Assembly (NCBI GenBank): GCA_963782915.1 | Contig: CAWALK010000012.1 | Span: 192,001 to 256,000 of the forward strand | Source: an uncultured archaeon | GTDB lineage: Archaea > Thermoproteota > Bathyarchaeia > Bathyarchaeales > Bathycorpusculaceae | Direction of reading: 5' to 3' | Length of the DNA stretch: 64,000 bases | Shown here: piece by piece, positions 3,676 through 29,979 of the stretch | Layout: every line of letters starts with the position of its first letter | Numbering within the stretch: the stretch's first letter is position 1 | Translations under genes and position numbers: made by a program | The notes under the pieces: model-generated | Seen by the model: only the letters and a program-made list of their open reading frames with translations | Databases searched by the model: none | Told to the model about the DNA's origin: nothing

Positions 3676-3789
3676 TTTAAGGCGAATTAACGCTATTTTG
3701 ATGTGCTAAAAAACGAACATGACGTGCTAAAGCATTGCATTAAGTACCGCTGCCACCCTGTTACAGACACCTGAGGGAGCTTGAATTAA

Positions 3790-5144: not shown

Positions 5145-6324
5145 CTAAGGGTTAACTCTTGTACCGTTCCAGAAAATCAGCTCTTCATAACGGCCCTTAG
5201 CATCCGCCAATAAAGTTGGGTAGTTGCATACTATGTCAAAGCCTGCGCCCTTTTGGCGTATGAGGCTGTCCACATCGCTGTAGATGCCGCGGGTTTGGCT
5301 GTCACCGCTCCAGAGACCCCAAACAGTGTCCGATGGATTCCTAAATCCAAAGCCATAATCAGCAGGCAAAACATAAGCGGTCTTCACATTTTTGTATTCT
5401 GTATCGACGCGTCCATAACTGGAACTGTAATTCCAAAACTTATGAAGCGCAGTCAAATGATCCTGCGTTAAAATACCATACTGTGCTGAATCAACTTTGG
5501 GGTAATCAAAAACAATCGCGTATTTCGCCCCATTGTTGTAGGCCAGTAAGAGATCGTCAAATAATTCAGTGCCCGACTCAATGTAGGGTGAACCGGTAAA
5601 GTTGCTGTATGTCCAAGTTATCATGGCACCCCAATCCCTATCGAACGTTCGTGCCCCACCACGTACCAATGCGATTTGTTGTTCACGGCTGTTATTCCAA
5701 CCGAACTCCGCCAAAACTGCATCGTACCCCGCTTGATAATCAAACCAGTATAACCCATAATCAGCCGTCAAAACATCTATTCCAGCATTTTGGTAGTATT
5801 CAATCTCTGGATTTAACACATCAACATAGCGTTCTGCTGCTTGTGTGTAGCTGCTGGCGCTTTTAACTTCCTGATATTTGCTGTTATCCAGTTGGTCTCC
5901 GCCGGCTTCATCCCACCTGTAAACCGCCACGAATTTGTCACCGTACTTTTCTTTAGCATCAACAACCCATTGTGCCGGCGTGTAATTCATGCCAACCTGA
6001 ATACTGAGAAGTATTAGTGAATAACACGATGAAGTGCAGACCTGAATCAACGATGTAGTTGCAACTCTCATCCAGCAGAGTCCTGTTTATAGAAACCTCC
6101 GGCAACCCCAAGACTACTATGTTGGTGTAGTTTTTTACTTCAGTGACGACTGCTTTTAAGTCGTTAAAGTCGCCGTATGCAACTTCTACGCCTACATAGA
6201 TTTCAGATGACTTAGCAGATTCAGGGGTCCGTGTTATCATAATAGAAGTCATGATTATCGTTATTGCTACGATTGCTAGAATGGCAACTTGCTGTTTTGA
6301 TAGCTTCCTTACCTTTGACTGCAT
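5145..6324 (-). CDS. Conserved hypothetical membrane-anchored protein (TIM-barrel/GH-like), frameshift near 5990
   Basis: ORFs 5959-6366 and 5145-6071 join into one protein; TADYGLYWFDY..GYDAVLAEFGWN motif. Confidence 0.65.
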
Positions 6325-22026: not shown

Positions 22027-23456
22027 TTGAAAGTCCTCTTCATCGAGCCGCCCAAAGACATATGGTTTGTCATGGGCGAATACCTGCCGCCGCCCTATGG
22101 CATCATCCAACTCGCCGCCTACCTGGAAAAAGCAAGTCGAAAATGTCCAGCTGGAGATTTTGGATTGCAACGCAGAAAAGATTGATTGGAAAATGATGGA
22201 GACGCGTATCTCCGCTTCTAACCCGGATGTAGTGGCTTGCGCTTCCTTGGCTACTTGTAACACTTATGCTGTTGTGAAAACTCTTGAAACCGCTAAACGA
22301 ATGGCACCAAAAGCCCTCACCGTAACAGGCGGGCAACACTTTACTGCAACAGCCCAGGACAGCCTTCAACGTTACCCCGAAATCGATGTCATCATCCGAA
22401 ATGAGGGTGAACAGACTTTAGCTGAATTAGTAAAAGCCCGCCAAAGCGGTGCAGGTTTCCAAAACATTGCTAGGCATCTCCTATCAGAAACGGCACAGCA
22501 ATCACACATAACCCGCCAAGACCCCTGATTGCAAACCTCGAGGACCTGCCGTTTCCAGGCTACCACCTCGTCAAAGAAAACATGCCCAAATACCACTTCT
22601 CCGATTATGGCGGGCAAAAATGCGCCCTACGCACTCATCGAGGGAGCAAGGGGATGCAACCACCAATGCACCTTCTGCACTCAGTGGCGGCATTGGCAAG
22701 CTTGCTGGCGCCTAAAACCTGCGAAGCGTATTGCAGACGAAATGGCGTATGTTAATCGGGAGTTTGGCAGCCAAATGATCTGGTTAACCGACGACAACTT
22801 TGGAACCGGGCAGCGCCCCGCCGAGATTGCGGAGGAAATCATCGCCAAACAATTACCTAAAGACGTGACATGGTTTGTTCAAGCCAGATGCGACGATATA
22901 ATCCGCAACAAAGACATTCTGCCCCGATTGGCTAAATCAGGGTTAAACTGGGTGCTGCTCGGAGTAGAAAATTCGAGTCCCTCCACGTTGGATTACTTCA
23001 AAAAAGGCATCACACCCAACGATGCAAAAACGGCGGTGAAACTGCTACAAGACAACGGCATCTTCGCCCACGCCATGGTCATCATCGGAAACCGCAAAGA
23101 CACCCACCAATCCATCCTTCAACTCAGAGAATTCGCCAACGATTTAGACCCCGACTTCATAATGTTTGGCATCTTAACGCCTTTCCCCGGCACAGAAGTC
23201 TACGCTGAAGCAGAACGCAACGGCTGGATAGAAGACCGCAACTGGAACCACTATGACATGATCCACGCCATAATGCCCACCGAAACACTCTACCACCCAT
23301 CAAGTACAAGAGGAACTCTATGGCTGCTACCGTGGCTTCTACGGCTCTTGGAACAGGCGATTAGGCGGATTCTTCTCAAGTAACCCAATGAAACGGCGCA
23401 CTTTTAGGCATATGGCAACTTGGGGCGTGACGGGCAAAATAAAATCGATGTTCTAG
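22027..23456 (+). CDS. B12-binding radical SAM enzyme (several frameshifts)
   Basis: PPPYGIIQLAAYL; GGQHFT; RGCNHQCTFC CxxxCxxC; DDNF; TPFPGT; spread over 3-4 frames. Confidence 0.85.
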
Positions 23457-23465
23457 GCGAACACT

Positions 23466-24158
23466 TTGCCGCAACCTGTGTCTTCCAAGTTTTTCTTGCT
23501 CTTCTTAGTGGCTGTTTCAATTGTTGGGTTAGCGCTTGTGCCGCTTCTTTTGCTTCAACCTAACCTGCAAGGAGACCTGTCACCTCTTAGACAACCCCTC
23601 GTAAGTGCACTGTACGGTGTAGTCTGCGTTTTGGGCATAGTTGCGGTGTTTTATCCGGGTAGATGCCGTTTGATGTTCCAAAAACCAGCCGCTTCCCCCA
23701 ACCCACAGAAAACTGCTTCTTCGGCCGTAGGGTTTAGGGGGCACCATCCAGACTGCGAAAAATTCGAGGCTAATCGGATTGCATTCAGGGGTTCGGTTTT
23801 TTGTGCTGCATGCACTGGCTTGCTGATTGGGGCAATAGCTGCTATGGCGGGGATAGTCTTGTTTTCTTTAGGCTACTTTAGTTTAGGTGCTGGAAATCTT
23901 TGGGTTTTGGCAGCTGGAGAAGTGTTGATGCTTGTGGGGTTAGCTCAAATAAAATTGGGCGGTTACATCAAAATGGCTGTGAATGCCCTGTTTGTGGTTG
24001 GCTCCTGCATAGTTTTGGTTGCGGCGGATTTGGCTGCTGGGAGCTTTCTGGTTGATGCGTATGTGCTTGGGTTGATCGTTTTTATGTTGTGGTTTAGGAT
24101 TTTGCTCTCAGAATGGAACAATAAAAAAACTTGTTTGATGTGTGGGCGTTGCGTTTAA
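23466..24158 (+). CDS. Polytopic membrane protein with HHPDC..CAAC metal motif
   Basis: About 7 TMs; Cys/His motifs reminiscent of DUF2085. Confidence 0.65.
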   Translation: MPQPVSSKFFLLFLVAVSIVGLALVPLLLLQPNLQGDLSPLRQPLVSALYGVVCVLGIVAVFYPGRCRLMFQKPAASPNPQKTASSAVGFRGHHPDCEKFEANRIAFRGSVFCAACTGLLIGAIAAMAGIVLFSLGYFSLGAGNLWVLAAGEVLMLVGLAQIKLGGYIKMAVNALFVVGSCIVLVAADLAAGSFLVDAYVLGLIVFMLWFRILLSEWNNKKTCLMCGRCV

Positions 24159-24502
24159 GATGGGGTTGGGGGGCGTTCGCGGTATCGTCTTTGCCTATAC
24201 AATGCGCCTAAAACGAGCAGTATGCCGAAGATGATTATTATGAATGGCCAGATATCTATTGATATTTGGTATGCCGCTTGCAAGAATAGGCTTAACCCAA
24301 CAAGGATTACGATGACGCCTATGACAAGAGTTACAATCATGCCGCCGTTTGGTAAGCCGAAGCATTCGTTTTCCATTCGCCGGTAGTGTTCTCGGTCGCT
24401 TCCGGGGTAACGTTGGCCGACTGTGTAGAGGGGTGCGCCGCAGTTTGTACAGTTGGTGTTGGTGTCTGCGTTTTGGGTGCCACATTTGCTGCAATAAACC
24501 AT
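24155..24502 (-). CDS. Zinc-ribbon membrane protein
   Basis: YCSKCG..CTNCG plus two TMs. Confidence 0.8.
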   Translation of the reverse strand: MVYCSKCGTQNADTNTNCTNCGAPLYTVGQRYPGSDREHYRRMENECFGLPNGGMIVTLVIGVIVILVGLSLFLQAAYQISIDIWPFIIIIFGILLVLGALYRQRRYRERPPTPS

Positions 24503-24641
24503 TAGGAATTCCTCAATCATGAGTAACCCCGTTTTGCCTTTAAGACTTGCGGTTACAAGAAATTCTGGAAAATCAGCTGTTTAGATTAAGAGATTAATTT
24601 TTCGACATTTTTGCCCTTCAAGCACTAAAAGAAATTTATTA

Positions 24642-24683
24642 GGACCTTGGGATTTGAACCGACATCTATAGAACCCAGGGCTA
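24642..24683 (-). repeat. Degenerate copy of tRNA-Pro 3' half (att-like remnant 3)
   Basis: ggaccttgggatttgaaccgacatctatagaacccagggcta versus tRNA gggcctcccggatttgaaccggagtctatagagcccaagtcta. Confidence 0.7.
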
Positions 24684-24720
24684 TCCCCACATGGCGCGGT
24701 GCCATTAAGATAAAAACTAA

Positions 24721-24852
24721 CTATTCCTCTCGGGTCTTTTGTCTTTGAAGCCGGTCAGCCTTCTTCTTCTTGCGCTTGTCATCTCTGCCTTTCTTCGTTT
24801 CCGGTTTAGGTTTTGACCTGTCTTGTTGTCCTGTTTCGCCTTTCTTTGACAT
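24721..24852 (-). CDS. 43-aa Lys/Arg-rich microprotein
   Basis: MSKKGETGQQDRSKPKPETKKGRDDKRKKKKADRLQRQKTREE; AGGAAG upstream. Confidence 0.4.
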   Translation of the reverse strand: MSKKGETGQQDRSKPKPETKKGRDDKRKKKKADRLQRQKTREE

Positions 24853-25041
24853 TTACAATTTCTTCCTACATAAAAGAAGTGGCTTCTTCTTGTTCTTGAA
24901 GGTATCCTTGCATTCTTGCACATCAAAGGAGTAACCTCAATATTTTTTTATTTTATAAAAAATTAGCAAGCGTAGAATATCAATTTCAATGGTACAAAGT
25001 CTTAAATCCGCATAACAATAAACATCGGCTTGAGTAATGCT

Positions 25042-25246
25042 ATGAAATGCCCTTCTTGCGATCAAACACTTAAACGAACAGAGGGTGTATGCGGCGAGTA
25101 CACTCTGCCTTAATCCCCAATGCCCTGAAAACAAGAAACCACACATAGGGGCATACAAAGGGTTTTTCGGGCTTACTCAAGCAGAAATATGCCAAAATTA
25201 TAATGCATCATTTACTAAAAAATCGATGGAAGAAATAAGAAAATAA
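25042..25246 (+). CDS. Small zinc-ribbon protein (one frameshift)
   Basis: MKCPSCDQTL..GEY / CLNPQCPENKK in the adjacent frame. Confidence 0.45.
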
Positions 25247-25283
25247 TAGCCAACCCTAAAATAAGATAGGTGAGCTATAAATT

Positions 25284-25436
25284 ATGGAATTGAGGATGAA
25301 AATTTTGACAAACGTTTTATGTACATGTTCTAATTGTGGCAGCAACCACATTGATGAGGATGAAGATATCGTTAAGTGCCTTGATTGTGGCATGGGCAAG
25401 TATAAGCAGGATAGGCATAAGAAATATTTTGTTTAA
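25284..25436 (+). CDS. 50-aa TFIIB-type zinc-ribbon microprotein
   Basis: CSNCGSNHIDEDEDIVKCLDCG. Confidence 0.55.
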   Translation: MELRMKILTNVLCTCSNCGSNHIDEDEDIVKCLDCGMGKYKQDRHKKYFV

Positions 25437-25510
25437 TTGCAAAAATAATGATTTTGAAAATAGAAAATTGCGTTTTTTATCTTTTTCTAATTTAGTGATA
25501 TCTCGACGAA

Positions 25511-25542
25511 TTGTGGGTCTCCCGATTTAAAACCGGGGTCTA
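25511..25542 (-). repeat. Degenerate copy of tRNA-Pro 3' end (att-like remnant 2)
   Basis: ttgtgggtctcccgatttaaaaccggggtcta versus tggtggggcctcccggatttgaaccggagtcta. Confidence 0.6.
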
Positions 25543-25642
25543 AACCTATCATCAATTGGTCAATTCGAAAATGATATGGTTAAACATTGAAAGTTGAATT
25601 GAAAACTTTAACTCTGCTCATGTCTACATAAGGCTCCAAGAT

Positions 25643-26152
25643 ATGGTTGCCATGCATTTTGAAAACGTCATATTTCCCGACTCTCTAAGCTTCCACTGCA
25701 AATGCTGCGGAGTCTGCTGTAGAGACCAACCACCAGATATTAATTTGAAAGAACAACAAAAAATAGAAGCTAAAGGCTTCGTGGATTTTTTAGAAGCACC
25801 TAACGATCCTCAAAACAGGAATATCCGCAAAAAACAAGATGGAAGCTGCATTTTCTTTACCGAAGAAAACACATGTAAGATTCATGACGTCAAACCGTCG
25901 ATATGCAGTTTGGAGCCATTCATCATAACAGACTTTGATCCTAAAACAAACAAGATATTTGTGGACTTAAATCCGCTTGCAGCCAAAAACTGCAAAGGCA
26001 TCTCTAAGGGCGAAATGGTTGCTCCAGAAGAAATCGCAAAAGCTGCCCAAACAATCGTGAAAGACTGTTTAGAAATAGTCGCTGTAAAAACGGGGCTTCC
26101 GGTTACAGATAAGAGGGTTGCTTCATTAACAAGGAAATTATTGTGTCTTTGA
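25643..26152 (+). CDS. YkgJ-family cysteine-cluster protein
   Basis: FHCKCCGVCC..CIFF..CKIHDVKPSICSLEPF..CKG. Confidence 0.88.
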   Translation: MVAMHFENVIFPDSLSFHCKCCGVCCRDQPPDINLKEQQKIEAKGFVDFLEAPNDPQNRNIRKKQDGSCIFFTEENTCKIHDVKPSICSLEPFIITDFDPKTNKIFVDLNPLAAKNCKGISKGEMVAPEEIAKAAQTIVKDCLEIVAVKTGLPVTDKRVASLTRKLLCL

Positions 26153-26227
26153 TTACAATGAATTGTTGAGCTTCAATTTGCAGCTAATCTTTTTGGTGTT
26201 TTATTTAGCCGTCTAACAGGCTTGAAC

Positions 26228-26364
26228 TGCTTGCAGAATCAGCCACAACCAGCCTGCAACCGCCAAAACATGCCCACACCAAAACAGCCGCTGCAGCCAA
26301 GCCTGCTGGTTGTTGTTGAAATAAGAGGGGCCCACAGCAACAACTAACATAAAAAAACAAGCAA
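26228..26364 (+). repeat. ~135-bp structured dispersed repeat R1
   Basis: Exact caaccagcctgcaaccgcc and tgctggttgttgttgaaataaga shared with 46998-47135; reverse copy at 33335-33465. Confidence 0.85.
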
Positions 26365-26380
26365 TTCAGAAGTGATGGAT

Positions 26381-26428
26381 TGGTGGGGTCTCCTGGATTT
26401 GAACCGGCGTCTATAGAGCCAAGTCTAC
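26381..26428 (-). repeat. Copy of tRNA-Pro 3' half (att-like remnant 1)
   Basis: Matches 27120-27168 with 3 substitutions and 1 deletion, from CCA through the anticodon arm. Confidence 0.9.
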
Positions 26429-26444
26429 TCCACCCGGCAGGCGC

Positions 26445-27074
26445 TTAATGAAAATATCTCCCGCCGAACAAAATATAGAAAACAGTCACGAAAATATACA
26501 ACCCTAAACTAACTACAGGAGCCCCAAACGAAAACGCCGTGGCTAACCCATAAACCGTAGGTCCCACAAGAGCGATCTTACTCCTTTTTGAGATTACTTC
26601 TAGGTCGGGTTCCTCGTGGGTTAAATGCCGTATTCGAGGATAGAACCAAAGAACATTGAACAGTATCGAAATCGCCAAAGCGTTTAACCCATAAGTGAAC
26701 ACGGCAACAGGTTGCATAGGGTATCTTCCCAGCAATGCCGTAGAGAAGGGTGCAAGCGCGATACTCATCAGCAAGAGAATATTGATCCACAAAACTTTCA
26801 GGTCGACCACTTCAATATGTCTTAGCATGTTTTGATGGCTTATCCAAAGAACCCCCAGGAAGACAAAAGTGATGATATAAGCGAAGAAGTCGGGAAGTAA
26901 GCCGTAAAGGTCGGCTTCAAGTGTGGCTTCGGTGCTCGGGCCAGTTATTGTTGGTACTACTAAGCTTAGGACTAAAATGGTCATGACGGTTGCAAATAAA
27001 CCGTCGGCGAGAGTTTCTATTCTGTCTATAGTAAAGCCGTAAGAATTCTTAGGTGGCATTTTATGCGAAAACAC
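26445..27074 (-). CDS. TMEM175-family potassium channel
   Basis: RIETLADGLFATVMTILVL; LWISHQ; PFSTALLG. Confidence 0.88.
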   Translation of the reverse strand: MFSHKMPPKNSYGFTIDRIETLADGLFATVMTILVLSLVVPTITGPSTEATLEADLYGLLPDFFAYIITFVFLGVLWISHQNMLRHIEVVDLKVLWINILLLMSIALAPFSTALLGRYPMQPVAVFTYGLNALAISILFNVLWFYPRIRHLTHEEPDLEVISKRSKIALVGPTVYGLATAFSFGAPVVSLGLYIFVTVFYILFGGRYFH

Positions 27075-27119
27075 CTCTAAAACGCTATCATTTTAACTGT
27101 CTAAAAGCTAAAAGTTGAT

Positions 27120-27197
27120 TGGTGGGGCCTCCCGGATTTGAACCGGAGTCTATAGAGCCCAAGTCTACAAGCCTGGACCAAGCTAGCCGAAGGCCCC
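27120..27197 (-). tRNA. tRNA-Pro (UGG), CCA encoded
   Basis: GGGGCCT/AGGCCCC acceptor stem, GTAGA-CT-TGG-GC-TCTAT anticodon arm, TTCAAAT T-loop, ACCA end. Confidence 0.95.
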
Positions 27198-27306
27198 ACA
27201 CAGTGTTGGTGGAACAGTATTTCCCCTGCACCCATAAAAACCTTGTCAAAACCCAAACCGAAACCGTTGCAGGAAACAGCGGTTGATGGGCGTTGAGCAT
27301 CCTTTT

Positions 27307-27477
27307 TTATGGTGCTTTTATTTCTAATCGGTTTTTGGTTTTGGCTTGTACGAATCTGTAGCGGGGGCAAGTGTAGCAGTTGCGGTCGCTGCAGTAGAGT
27401 GCGATTTTTTCGGGGATTTTGGCTGAGTTTAGGAGTGCGCTGCATGTTTTTTTGCTTGTAAGGTATCGGCATGCCAT
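27307..27477 (-). CDS. 56-aa Cys-rich microprotein
   Basis: MACRYLTSKKTCSALLNSAKIPEKIALYCSDRNCYTCPRYRFVQAKTKNRLEIKAP; GGTGA RBS. Confidence 0.6.
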   Translation of the reverse strand: MACRYLTSKKTCSALLNSAKIPEKIALYCSDRNCYTCPRYRFVQAKTKNRLEIKAP

Positions 27478-27877
27478 TCTTAATCACCGTTTGGAATGGG
27501 TGGTTCCTAAATGTGGGAGAAGAAAACTATTGTTCATGGTTGCTTTGGTTGATGGGTTGTGGGTTTTCTCCGATTTTTTGTGGTTTTTGGTTTTGTTTGG
27601 CTTGCATAAAAAGTTCCACCTTTAGTTAAACTTCTAAAAAGTATTAACTAAACTATTGGTGAAAAGCACTCATAAAGGTAGCGGTTGCTTATCTGCCAAA
27701 AACCATGAATAAACAACTTTTTTGATATCACCCGTTTGCTGGGAGGGGGTTCGTCTTGGGTTTTTGCGGTTTTTATGTAAGGTGACCCTCGCCATTAGTC
27801 AGCTAATAGAAAAAAAAAGAAAACAAACCAAGCTGACTTCTCGACGACCCTAACAGCAAGATTAACCCAAGAAGCAA

Positions 27878-28618
27878 TCAGACAGGGTATTTGGCATATA
27901 GCCTATAGATGCTTTTAGTATTTTCAAGTGCTTTATGTCTTAGCGAAAGCAGAGATAGGCCCAGTAACAGGAAAATAGCGCCTAAACCCATTACGCCCAC
28001 AATAGCCAAGACAGAAACCAACCATATTGTATTAAAATAGCTTGGCAGTGAGTTTTCTGTGTCAATAACCGATGATCTCAAATCTCCAAGTGTACTATTC
28101 ACATTATCCAGCTGGACAGTTATACCGTTTATTCTGTTGGGTACATCAGCGGCTTGTTGTCGAATGGAGTTTATGCTTGTGGATACGCTTTGAAGTTTGG
28201 ATGCTGCATCAGTTATTGGTTGACCTATCGAGGATATGGTGGTTCCGACTGAACCAAAAGGGCTAACTCCAGCGATGGAGATGCTGCCTAATGTTTGCCC
28301 AGCGCCAGTCACTGTTGAGCCGATGGAGGTCAGGTTGGTTGCGATGTTGCCGGTTAATTCGCCGCTGCTCGATAATGCTGGTATACTGATGTTTGTGGCG
28401 TCGCTTAGGTATAGTAGGGTGACTTGGGTTGAGTTTATGGCGTTTTGCGCACTTAGTAGAGCATTATCTGCTTTGGTGAGATAAGCTGAGGCGGTGGATT
28501 GTATGTTGTTTAGGGTGTTGTTTATGATTGGGAGGGCGATGCCTGCGCCGATTATGATGCCTATCCCTAGAATGATGCATATTATGCCAGTAAAAAAGGG
28601 TATTTTCATGTCAGTCAT
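27878..28618 (-). CDS. Two-TM protein with long extracellular coiled coil
   Basis: Heptad-like Ser/Thr/Asn-rich region between N- and C-terminal TMs. Confidence 0.7.
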   Translation of the reverse strand: MTDMKIPFFTGIICIILGIGIIIGAGIALPIINNTLNNIQSTASAYLTKADNALLSAQNAINSTQVTLLYLSDATNISIPALSSSGELTGNIATNLTSIGSTVTGAGQTLGSISIAGVSPFGSVGTTISSIGQPITDAASKLQSVSTSINSIRQQAADVPNRINGITVQLDNVNSTLGDLRSSVIDTENSLPSYFNTIWLVSVLAIVGVMGLGAIFLLLGLSLLSLRHKALENTKSIYRLYAKYPV

Positions 28619-28908
28619 AAAAAATGCCTTTCCTTGAAAAACAGAAAACCGAAAGCACTATGCTAAATCAGTGTGTGAATTTTAAGGTTTGTTTGCCTGA
28701 GTGAAGCTCAAAACCTATCTTCTTTATCGCTCAAAGACGTCGCGTGATCTCCAGCCGAGCCTTTTTTGTATCTATAAATGTGGAGGAGATAGATTGCCCT
28801 ATCAGCAGACTCTTAATTCCTTGGCGCTTTGAAGGCATAAAGCACATACAGCCTGCACATAAGCCTTATATTTTCAAAGTTAACCTTCTCTGACTGAAGG
28901 CTCAAAGC

Positions 28909-29979
28909 ATGCACAAAAAACTCTTGATTCCGGGTCCAACAGAAGTAAGTAAAGAAATACTAAATGAACAAACCCAGTACCTAATTGGCCATAGAGAAAA
29001 AGAGTTCTCCGACCTATACGGCGGAATCACAGGTAAAATCGCAAAATATTTCCAATTAACAGCCGATTACAAACCAACAGTCACCACTGGTTCAGGAACA
29101 TTGTGGTTTGACATAATCGGCAGAAGCATAGTAAAAGAAAAAGCGCTTGCATGCGTCAATGGAGCATTCTCCAAACGCTGTGCACAAACCCTCGCTTCAT
29201 GCGGCAAACAAACCGATGTCTTCGAGGTTGAAATGGGCAAAGCAATCAAACCAGATATGGTTGCAGAAAAACTTGCCACAGGCAAATACGACACCCTAAC
29301 CGTTTGCCACAACGAAACCTCTTCAGGTGTCCGAAGCCCAATCGCTGAAATCGGTAAAATGGTCAAAAAAGAATACCCCGACATCATCTTCGCCGTAGAT
29401 GCGGTCTCCTCAATGGCAGGCGACAAAACATTACCCTCAGAATTCAACTGCGACATCGTCTTTGGCAGCACCCAAAAATGCTTCGCACTGCCACCTGGAT
29501 TAGCAGTTGCACTTGTTAGCGACCGAGCAATCCAACGTGCCACCCAAGTGCCCAACAGAGGCGCATACACCGACCTAGTCGACATCTTCGAATTCGAAAA
29601 GAAACATCAAACACCCTTCACACCAAACGTCTCATTACTCTATGCACTAAACAAACGCATGGACCTATTGCTCGAGGAAACCTACGATAAAGTCTACCAA
29701 CGCCACCAAGACATGGCAACCTACACCCAGAACTGGGCAAAGAAACACTTCAGCATGTTCCCAGAACCAGGCTACGAATCCATCACTGTGAGCTGCATAA
29801 ACAGCAACGGCAAAGACGTCAAAGCATTAAACCAGAAACTCGCAGAAAAAGGCTACATGATCTCTGGCGGCTACGGAAAATTAGCTGACAAAACCTTCCG
29901 CATCGGCCACATGGGCGAATGGAACCTCGATGGCATCAAAGACGTAATCGCTCAAATCGACTCTATTTGGGGATTGTAG
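28909..29979 (+). CDS. Class V PLP aminotransferase (serine-pyruvate/phosphoserine aminotransferase-like)
   Basis: LLIPGPT; HNETSSGV; DAVSS; STQKCFALPPG; FRIGHMG. Confidence 0.9.
   Translation: MHKKLLIPGPTEVSKEILNEQTQYLIGHREKEFSDLYGGITGKIAKYFQLTADYKPTVTTGSGTLWFDIIGRSIVKEKALACVNGAFSKRCAQTLASCGKQTDVFEVEMGKAIKPDMVAEKLATGKYDTLTVCHNETSSGVRSPIAEIGKMVKKEYPDIIFAVDAVSSMAGDKTLPSEFNCDIVFGSTQKCFALPPGLAVALVSDRAIQRATQVPNRGAYTDLVDIFEFEKKHQTPFTPNVSLLYALNKRMDLLLEETYDKVYQRHQDMATYTQNWAKKHFSMFPEPGYESITVSCINSNGKDVKALNQKLAEKGYMISGGYGKLADKTFRIGHMGEWNLDGIKDVIAQIDSIWGL

Follow-up and report, generated by a model that had tools for sequence, protein, structure and literature searches.

The tRNA-Pro(UGG) gene of an uncultured Bathyarchaeia archaeon (source genome G000) is followed by three decaying copies of its own 3′ half, which delimit small packets of accessory genes. 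The locus lies in a 64,000-nucleotide stretch of contig CAWALK010000012.1 (C12:192001-256000), hereafter called the window. The three copies are attachment-site (att) scars, and the array was probably built by integrase-bearing elements that integrated serially at the tRNA gene and then lost their integrases by deletion. The G000 assembly (3.28 Mb, 25 contigs, 45% G+C, 93.5% complete) was compared with 120 genomes of the genus, labelled here by G-numbers; the closest genome compared is G113, which is 90% identical at a core locus.

Of the 46 tRNAs called in G000, tRNA-Pro(UGG) is the sole one in the window. The integration target (attB) is the 3′ 46-49 nt of this gene. The gene, its copies and the flank associated with copy 1 are located as follows.

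27120..27197, minus strand: tRNA-Pro(UGG), with CCA encoded (ARAGORN; Rfam RF00005, 49.9 bits)
26381..26428, minus strand: copy 1, the displaced original tRNA-Pro 3′ half, positions 30-78 (blastn, alignment)
26346..26380, minus strand: native downstream flank of the tRNA, moved with copy 1 (blastn to G121, G134 and G106)
25515..25542, minus strand: copy 2, a weak remnant, tRNA-Pro positions 46-73 (local alignment)
24650..24683, minus strand: copy 3, apparently the oldest displaced 3′ half, positions 31-64 (local alignment)

Copy 1 is identical to the tRNA at 45 of 49 positions, with three substitutions and one deletion, and is recovered by genome-wide blastn at E = 7e-10. The other two are identical to the tRNA at about 82-83% over 29-34 nt: local alignment yields 24 of 29 identical positions with two gaps for copy 2 (score 17) and 28 of 34 for copy 3 (score 22). 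Both were missed by blastn-short at E ≤ 0.01 and are therefore weak when taken alone. Each copy nevertheless has tRNA-Pro(UGG) as its best match among the 46 tRNAs (next-best scores 24, 13 and 16). As a genome-wide control, tRNA-Pro was aligned to 131,284 100-nt windows on both strands of the 3.28-Mb assembly. Scores of at least 22 occur at only about 5 other non-tRNA loci and scores of at least 17 at about 15-20. A hit this good would fall by chance into the 2.5 kb that follow the gene, and on its strand, with a probability of roughly 0.002 (copy 3) or 0.01 (copy 2).

A first-pass annotation of this DNA had reported same-strand, downstream copies of the tRNA-Pro 3′ half, the distal ones more diverged, and both observations are confirmed. 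Its limits for the distal copies (24642-24683 and 25511-25542) mark the correct sites, with local alignment placing the boundaries a few bases further in. The small intervals that it described likewise hold, measuring 691, 838 and 827 bp outward from the tRNA, and Pfam checks agree on their contents: a TMEM175-family gene, then a YkgJ-type gene with a repeat called R1, then zinc-ribbon microgenes. The G+C fraction drops along the array from 0.44 to 0.40 to 0.36, compared with 0.45 for the contig. We also considered whether the copies could be functional 3′ halves of a split tRNA and rejected this idea, as stem pairs are broken and an intact tRNA-Pro(UGG) is present; specifically, the changes in copy 1 disrupt T-stem pairs, and copy 1 is thus not functional.

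Empty sites in related genomes bear out the proposal that the copies are att-type duplications. In G121, G134 and G106, blastn aligns the intact tRNA and its upstream DNA to window positions 27250-27116, and the tRNA 3′ half with its downstream flank aligns again at copy 1. Specifically, G121 6010-6085 (the 3′ half of the tRNA and the 27 nt that follow it) matches window 26428-26355 at 83%, and the equivalent DNA of G134 and G106 matches 26428-26346 (80%) and 26428-26363 (84%), respectively. This split alignment indicates that the native flank was displaced along with the old 3′ half. As delimited by these alignments, the inserted DNA is about 0.74 kb, corresponding to one att copy plus the TMEM175 gene. 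The YkgJ-type gene of G121 lies 150 bp past the tRNA, and G121 therefore represents an empty site for the packet nearest the tRNA (packet 1, 26429-27119, 691 bp, filled by the TMEM175 gene). Indeed, TMEM175 is missing from this slot in G113, G121, G134 and G106. An empty site for the whole array is found in G012, where the tRNA is 145 nt from the first left-flank gene, at the place occupied by copy 3 in G000.

The order of insertion can be read from G113, in which the left flank, the microgenes, YkgJ and copy 3 are all present at 81-85% identity to G000. Copy 3 is present there at the orthologous place (score 24) and copy 2 weakly so (score 13); a counterpart of copy 2 was not found in G014. 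Between YkgJ and the tRNA, G113 carries dodecin and MGS-like genes that replace R1, copy 1 and TMEM175. Because G113 lacks packet 1 but retains copy 3 and the distal genes, packet 1 is the youngest, in agreement with the earlier suggestion that the newest packet lies nearest the tRNA. The YkgJ-type gene is also located between the left flank and tRNA-Pro in G121, G085, G054, G097 and G060 as well as G113, and near tRNA-Pro in G014. Its occupation of this slot in at least eight species identifies it as a long-standing resident rather than a recent capture.

Intact integrases are found at the same tRNA gene in congeners. Insertions of 8.7-15.7 kb at tRNA-Pro in G056, G060 and G076, with repeats that are exact or nearly so over 46-52 nt, carry at their far end an open reading frame (ORF) of 286-292 aa that matches PF16795 (3 of 57 ORFs scanned). 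The integrase gene begins at TTG, and its codons 1-16, which read MVGPPGFEPESIEPKS, correspond in reverse complement to the last 48 nt of the tRNA, CCA included. Correspondingly, the tRNA 3′ end of the window, read on the plus strand from 27119, reproduces the first 16 integrase codons, and tblastn aligns the G060, G056 and G076 proteins to 27119-27166 with 81-94% identity over 16 aa. Because att forms the 5′ end of the integrase gene, the integrated gene comes to lie at the far end of the element and starts inside the displaced fragment. Integrated copies keep the whole ORF (286-292 aa, within open frames of 296-366 aa), and integration would separate the gene from whatever was upstream of it in the circle. 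These loci demonstrate insertion with target duplication, and an integrase together with its att site. A tyrosine recombinase targeting tRNA-Pro, which the first-pass annotation proposed to look for, is therefore found in congeners and appears to be aimed at exactly this tRNA half.

The integrase family is present in 57 of the 120 genus genomes. A phmmer search against PDB chains gave no better than E 0.14, to ‘Probable integrase’ chains, and NCBIfam gave no useful match. A further member in G093 (C5:97139-97999), 68% identical to the G060 enzyme, starts at a tRNA-Pro(CGG)-type core, which suggests a target switch within one subfamily.

The tRNA-Pro locus is an insertion hot spot throughout the genus. 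At the loci of 12 relatives the DNA following the tRNA differs almost completely, with contents that include metallo-beta-lactamase, OsmC, SRPBCC, cupin, PIN, DUF2196, ABC-2 and PAS-kinase genes. The fixed gene order that the first-pass annotation named as a finding that would contradict it is not observed; the locus is highly variable between species. Downstream 3′-half fragments occur at four of these 12 loci, and upstream or inverted fragments at none. We also searched the genus with a 29-nt core of the tRNA half, which is identical in most congeners, allowing up to 3 mismatches. It is matched in 111 of 120 genomes, and at least 19 of the 120 carry two or three UGG-type copies that lie in the same orientation on a single contig, separated by 0.75 to 15.8 kb. 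Extra copies are present in each of the 14 retrieved loci for which a tRNA-Pro was called, and they invariably lie downstream on the same strand. The exact 29-nt core has no match in the viral_contigs set.

The absence of an integrase from the array itself, as first annotated, is upheld: Pfam genome scans, tblastn with four integrases and the family profile detect no integrase or remnant at 23000-29000. Integrase fragments of collapsed elements, which the first-pass annotation regarded as evidence that would contradict its proposal, were not found at this array and are present in relatives. Broken integrases adjoin tRNA-Pro fragments in G105 (frameshifted) and G101 (14 stops), and stumps do so in G087 (the first ~105 aa), G020 (98 aa), G107 (81 aa) and G114 (49 aa), with C-terminal pieces in G085 and G116. 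In G020 the 98-aa stump starts in a tRNA-Pro fragment and is followed after about 200 bp by a homologue of the lysine-rich block that lies next to copy 3 in G000. A deletion form of packet 1 is also on record. Eight sequencing runs, all with word shares of at most 0.14, were available as contigs only and contributed two joints and a few pieces; gaps in coverage and depth carry no information in such contigs. One contig from run X2, 5,580 nt long, carries the end of the tRNA with 7 nt more, directly followed by the final 77 bp of TMEM175 (with 2 differences), a 15-nt spacer and a tRNA-like fragment; this arrangement corresponds to packet 1 minus 591 bp (a single record).

On this basis we infer that the three packets in G000 once carried an integrase and lost it. 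A circular element would recombine with the 3′ 46-49 nt of tRNA-Pro(UGG) and give the gene a new 3′ half, and each insertion would push the old 3′ half and the native flank downstream. The recombinase would be a PF16795 tyrosine integrase of the Sulfolobus spindle-shaped virus (SSV) type, as in congeners. Its gene would since have been deleted in G000 together with the other integrase-bearing parts, leaving as cargo the TMEM175 gene, the older YkgJ-type gene, and the Zn-ribbon and lysine-rich microgenes.

Several observations weigh against this history. An intact family integrase was not found in the G000 assembly (93.5% complete), in which the traces of the family are a copy in two frames on C24 and a weak match on C19. 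The integrase-like matches at the three copies are limited to the 16-23 residues encoded by att itself. Packet 1 is gene-tight, with 16 nt between the TMEM175 stop and copy 1 and 12 nt between the tRNA and the point where homology to the closest outside relative ends, such that a deletion would need to have ended immediately before a fragment that is under no selection. Intervals that have no integrase but retain good repeats are also common in the genus (for example in G054, G097 and G007). One of these, a 1.87-kb ABC-2 packet in G054, has a repeat that is identical at 46 of 46 positions. G069 carries this packet too, with matching limits and at 84% identity, compared with 71.5% for a core locus, next to unrelated distal DNA and with a decayed fragment. 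Furthermore, YkgJ follows the left flank after 39 bp in G060, which lacks the microgene block, and after 0.55-1.8 kb of unrelated DNA in G121, G085, G054 and G097, with no tRNA fragments in this spacer in any of the five. These fragment-free spacers leave the order of the two older events uncertain, and an old fragment, not the tRNA, may have been the entry point of the microgene block that copies 3 and 2 flank.

A tentative and less likely alternative is that the packets themselves are mobile, with att-bounded DNA excised as a circle, which an integrase contributed in trans by a transient element would put back into tRNA-Pro or into an old fragment. The tightness of the packets and the lack of integrase remnants, the exact repeat of the G054 packet and the excess identity of its G069 counterpart between unrelated distal flanks would all fit, as would G097, in which the Zn-ribbon unit and YkgJ stand in the opposite order behind the tRNA. 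Acting by itself, a related integrase from archaea excises DNA that lies between two direct att sites, and att plus the enzyme suffice for integration (PMC7253208). Family integrases are present in nearly half of the genus genomes. However, the best-sampled packet behaves differently. A vapBC (PIN) module of about 740 bp, bordered by tRNA-Pro on one side and by a second, near-complete copy of that gene on the other, is found end to end in five species (G099, G074, G060, G098 and G002; loci L059, L062, L066, L070 and L019). Its identity of 73-91% tracks that of a core locus (69.5-79.7%) in the same species pairs, and the two measures agree on which pair is closest. This fits old vertical inheritance, although the outer DNA on either side of the module differs between species. 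Homologues of the packet genes located elsewhere also speak against mobile packets: of the congener loci retrieved (4 with TMEM175, 8 with YkgJ, 5 with the Zn-ribbon block and 3 with the lysine-rich block), only that of G020 has tRNA-Pro fragments, and single matches to other tRNAs at those loci are within chance. The 14 metagenome relatives of TMEM175 likewise revealed no tRNA-Pro fragment, integrase or source element. Moreover, the integrase stumps and the 591-bp deletion form attest that decay does happen. The first-pass proposal of serial capture of tiny non-autonomous cassettes is thus sustained as regards insertion into the tRNA 3′ half, whereas integrase-free capture is on balance less likely, given the stumps in relatives, the G020 arrangement and the deletion form. 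The stronger version makes the tRNA locus an archaeal counterpart of an integron that stores cassettes but has no integrase of its own. PF16795 integrases brought by transient elements, requiring no more than the att core, would excise TMEM175 (0.74 kb per repeat unit) and ABC-2 (1.9 kb) units and insert them again at the tRNA or at old fragments. This version seems rather unlikely.

The duplications could in principle have arisen with no integrase at all, if circular DNA carrying a piece of tRNA-Pro were inserted by homologous (Campbell-type) recombination and duplicated whatever length of tRNA it carried. The 5′ limits of the duplicated part do vary in the genus (positions 5, 8, 11, 14, 21, 27, 30, 32-35 and 40), and the target is highly conserved. 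We consider this route improbable because exact repeats of recent origin tend to span positions 33-35 to 78 and coincide with the integrase start, all duplications are 3′ parts in direct orientation, and the longest copies belong to the vapBC arrangement; the two tRNA-Pro copies around that module may be a separate kind of structure. Least probable is that the copies are chance resemblances or decayed tandem tRNA duplicates (pseudogenes) unconnected with mobile DNA. The shortness, the 82-83% identity and the poor blastn-short visibility of copies 2 and 3 favour such a reading. However, their position and strand would seldom arise by chance (about 0.002 and 0.01), the copied parts all come from the 3′ side of the gene, copy 1 took the native flank with it and relatives have empty sites. 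For copies 1 and 3 this reading is largely refuted. Serial integration followed by integrase loss remains the account that we prefer.

The remaining features of the array and its left border are as follows.

26445..27074, minus strand: TMEM175-family gene (PF06736; Pfam E 5.8e-23)
26227..26364, no strand assigned: repeat R1, a dispersed ~135-nt repeat outside the att system (blastn)
25643..26152, plus strand: CxxCxxCC / YkgJ-type gene (PF03692; Pfam, synteny)
24984..25469, plus strand: small Zn-ribbon ORF block (ORF list; blastn to G003, G021, G013 and G024)
24718..24919, no strand assigned: conserved small-gene block with a 43-aa lysine-rich ORF at 24721-24852 on the minus strand (ORF list; blastn)
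24155..24520, minus strand: first left-flank gene, encoding a Zn-ribbon and membrane protein (Pfam; synteny)

The left flank (22500-24570) is 77-81% identical in seven congeners, and the lysine-rich block starts 35 bp past copy 3. The Zn-ribbon block, which is 72-78% identical in congeners in other contexts, contains a 50-aa ORF at 25284-25436 and ORFs of 23 and 53 aa at 25043-25246. The 23-aa ORF has a CxxC motif and overlaps the 53-aa ORF, which lies in another frame and has a second Cys pair, so that the two look like one Zn-ribbon gene split by a frameshift. Repeat R1 has 63 blastn matches in G000 (71-96% identity) and copies throughout the genus; one of its strands encodes a hydrophobic stretch, and in G007 it also abuts a tRNA-Pro fragment, on the opposite side. 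Upstream of the tRNA, the 1.73 kb at 27342-29073 is replaced by about 23 bp in G113; this DNA holds a 56-aa Cys-rich ORF and a gene for a 246-aa membrane protein, and no tRNA fragment was seen at its ends.

The TMEM175-family gene is present in a single copy in G000 (one tblastn match). Its closest outside relative (L083, 87% aa identity) aligns to 27108-26445 only, which covers the gene and 34 nt upstream. The orthologues in G001, G010 and G023 adjoin a Band-7 gene block, and the counterpart of this block in G000 (C18:43.4-46.2 kb) is without TMEM175 and adjoins a degraded integrase-like ORF. TMEM175 may have moved within the lineage or may have arrived from outside. At this G000 locus (L053, C18:39000-47000), two small membrane-protein ORFs stand where congeners have TMEM175, and the large integrase-like ORF is fragmented; it is intact in G001, at 682 aa. 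In G007 (L043, G007:C56, 1952-3581), the gene for an integrase of another family (PF00589, 334 aa) directly adjoins a YkgJ-type gene whose product is 67% identical to that of the window, and a 3′ fragment resembling tRNA-Ala lies in the part of the integrase gene that encodes the N terminus. When the G007 PF00589 integrase, the 682-aa ORF of G001 and a G000 fragment were used as queries, no match was obtained in the arrays.

Similar scars occur elsewhere in G000. In the genome as a whole, six tRNA genes are followed by 3′ fragments in various states of decay (eight in all), and two others are preceded by 5′ copies (two in all). A second array on C20 (2356-10819) comprises tRNA-Leu(UAG) with downstream 3′-part fragments at 5843-5895, 3678-3703 and 2356-2380, and fragments of tRNA-Met (C18) and tRNA-Pro(GGG) (C23) are only 0.69 and 0.64 kb from their genes. 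On C19 (112414-112459) there is an exact 46-nt copy of the 3′ half of tRNA-Thr(GGU), the gene for which is on another contig; this copy is near tRNA-Asn and the weak integrase match (C19:115529-115726). On C24 (151783-154741) an exact 42-nt copy of the 5′ half of tRNA-Gly(UCC) lies 2.8 kb upstream of its gene and is directly followed by the PF16795 homologue split over two frames, a family member aimed at the 5′ half.

The enzymes found in congeners resemble SSV-type ‘suicidal’ (class I) integrases, in which att lies inside the ORF and is translated and which need no helper proteins (PMC8371274 and PMC7253208). Decayed archaeal elements trapped at tRNA genes are also described as leaving foreign genes and tRNA-fragment repeats (PMC8371274). 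The likeness extends to the use of the tRNA 3′ part as target, att within the integrase ORF, decay after trapping and the PF16795 match. Unlike SSV-type genes, however, the ORF stays in one piece instead of being divided into Int(N) and Int(C), since att occupies codons 1-16 and only the promoter is severed, and in the window itself no integrase is left. SSV-type integrases have been described in Sulfolobales, Thermococcales, Archaeoglobales and a few Methanosarcinales (PMC8371274 and PMC7253208), and PMC7253208 makes no mention of Bathyarchaeia. Tandem arrays at one target are known for the integrated mobile genetic elements of Thaumarchaeota, of which the smallest cryptic element is 2.6 kb and integrase-bearing by the definition of that study (PMC6563490), and tandem integrations at the transfer-messenger RNA (tmRNA) gene form the Dehalococcoides ssrA islands (PMC3146451). 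The G000 array is similar in that one RNA gene is reused as attB, 3′-end direct repeats separate the insertions and the newest insertion is next to the gene, but its units of 0.69-0.84 kb, with one or two genes, are below the Thaumarchaeota minimum of 2.6 kb.

Att-bounded units without integrase genes also recall the cis-mobilizable elements (CIMEs) of the ICESt1/ICESt3 family in streptococci, which are att-flanked, lack recombination genes, arise by deletion and can be mobilised by a tandem integrase-bearing element. That system is bacterial and conjugative, whereas packet mobilisation is only a candidate process here. Gene capture in archaeal chromosomes was reportedly described by She et al. 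in 2001. The first-pass annotation had called the array integron-like, and a row of small packets between recombination sites, along with vapBC toxin-antitoxin packets in arrays of the genus, does invite the comparison. The array is not an integron: an adjacent intI, an attI and a shared promoter are all lacking, tRNA halves take the place of attC hairpins as recombination sites, the genes lie on both strands, and the upstream region of TMEM175 is kept in its outside relative. Arrays at one target and decayed elements at tRNA genes are already known; less usual are the packet size and the use of att as the first codons of the integrase.

The locus provides a fine-detail view of the gain and loss of single accessory genes at an archaeal tRNA gene, where even close relatives differ in the slot adjacent to the tRNA. 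The sole TMEM175-family gene of G000 resides in such a slot, whereas congeners carry TMEM175 in another, conserved neighbourhood. The use of att as the first 16 codons extends integrases with att in the ORF to a new arrangement and to a genus of sediment archaea. If the packets do move as such, the tRNA gene would anchor a cassette system without a resident integrase; otherwise, the array is a clean example of element decay.

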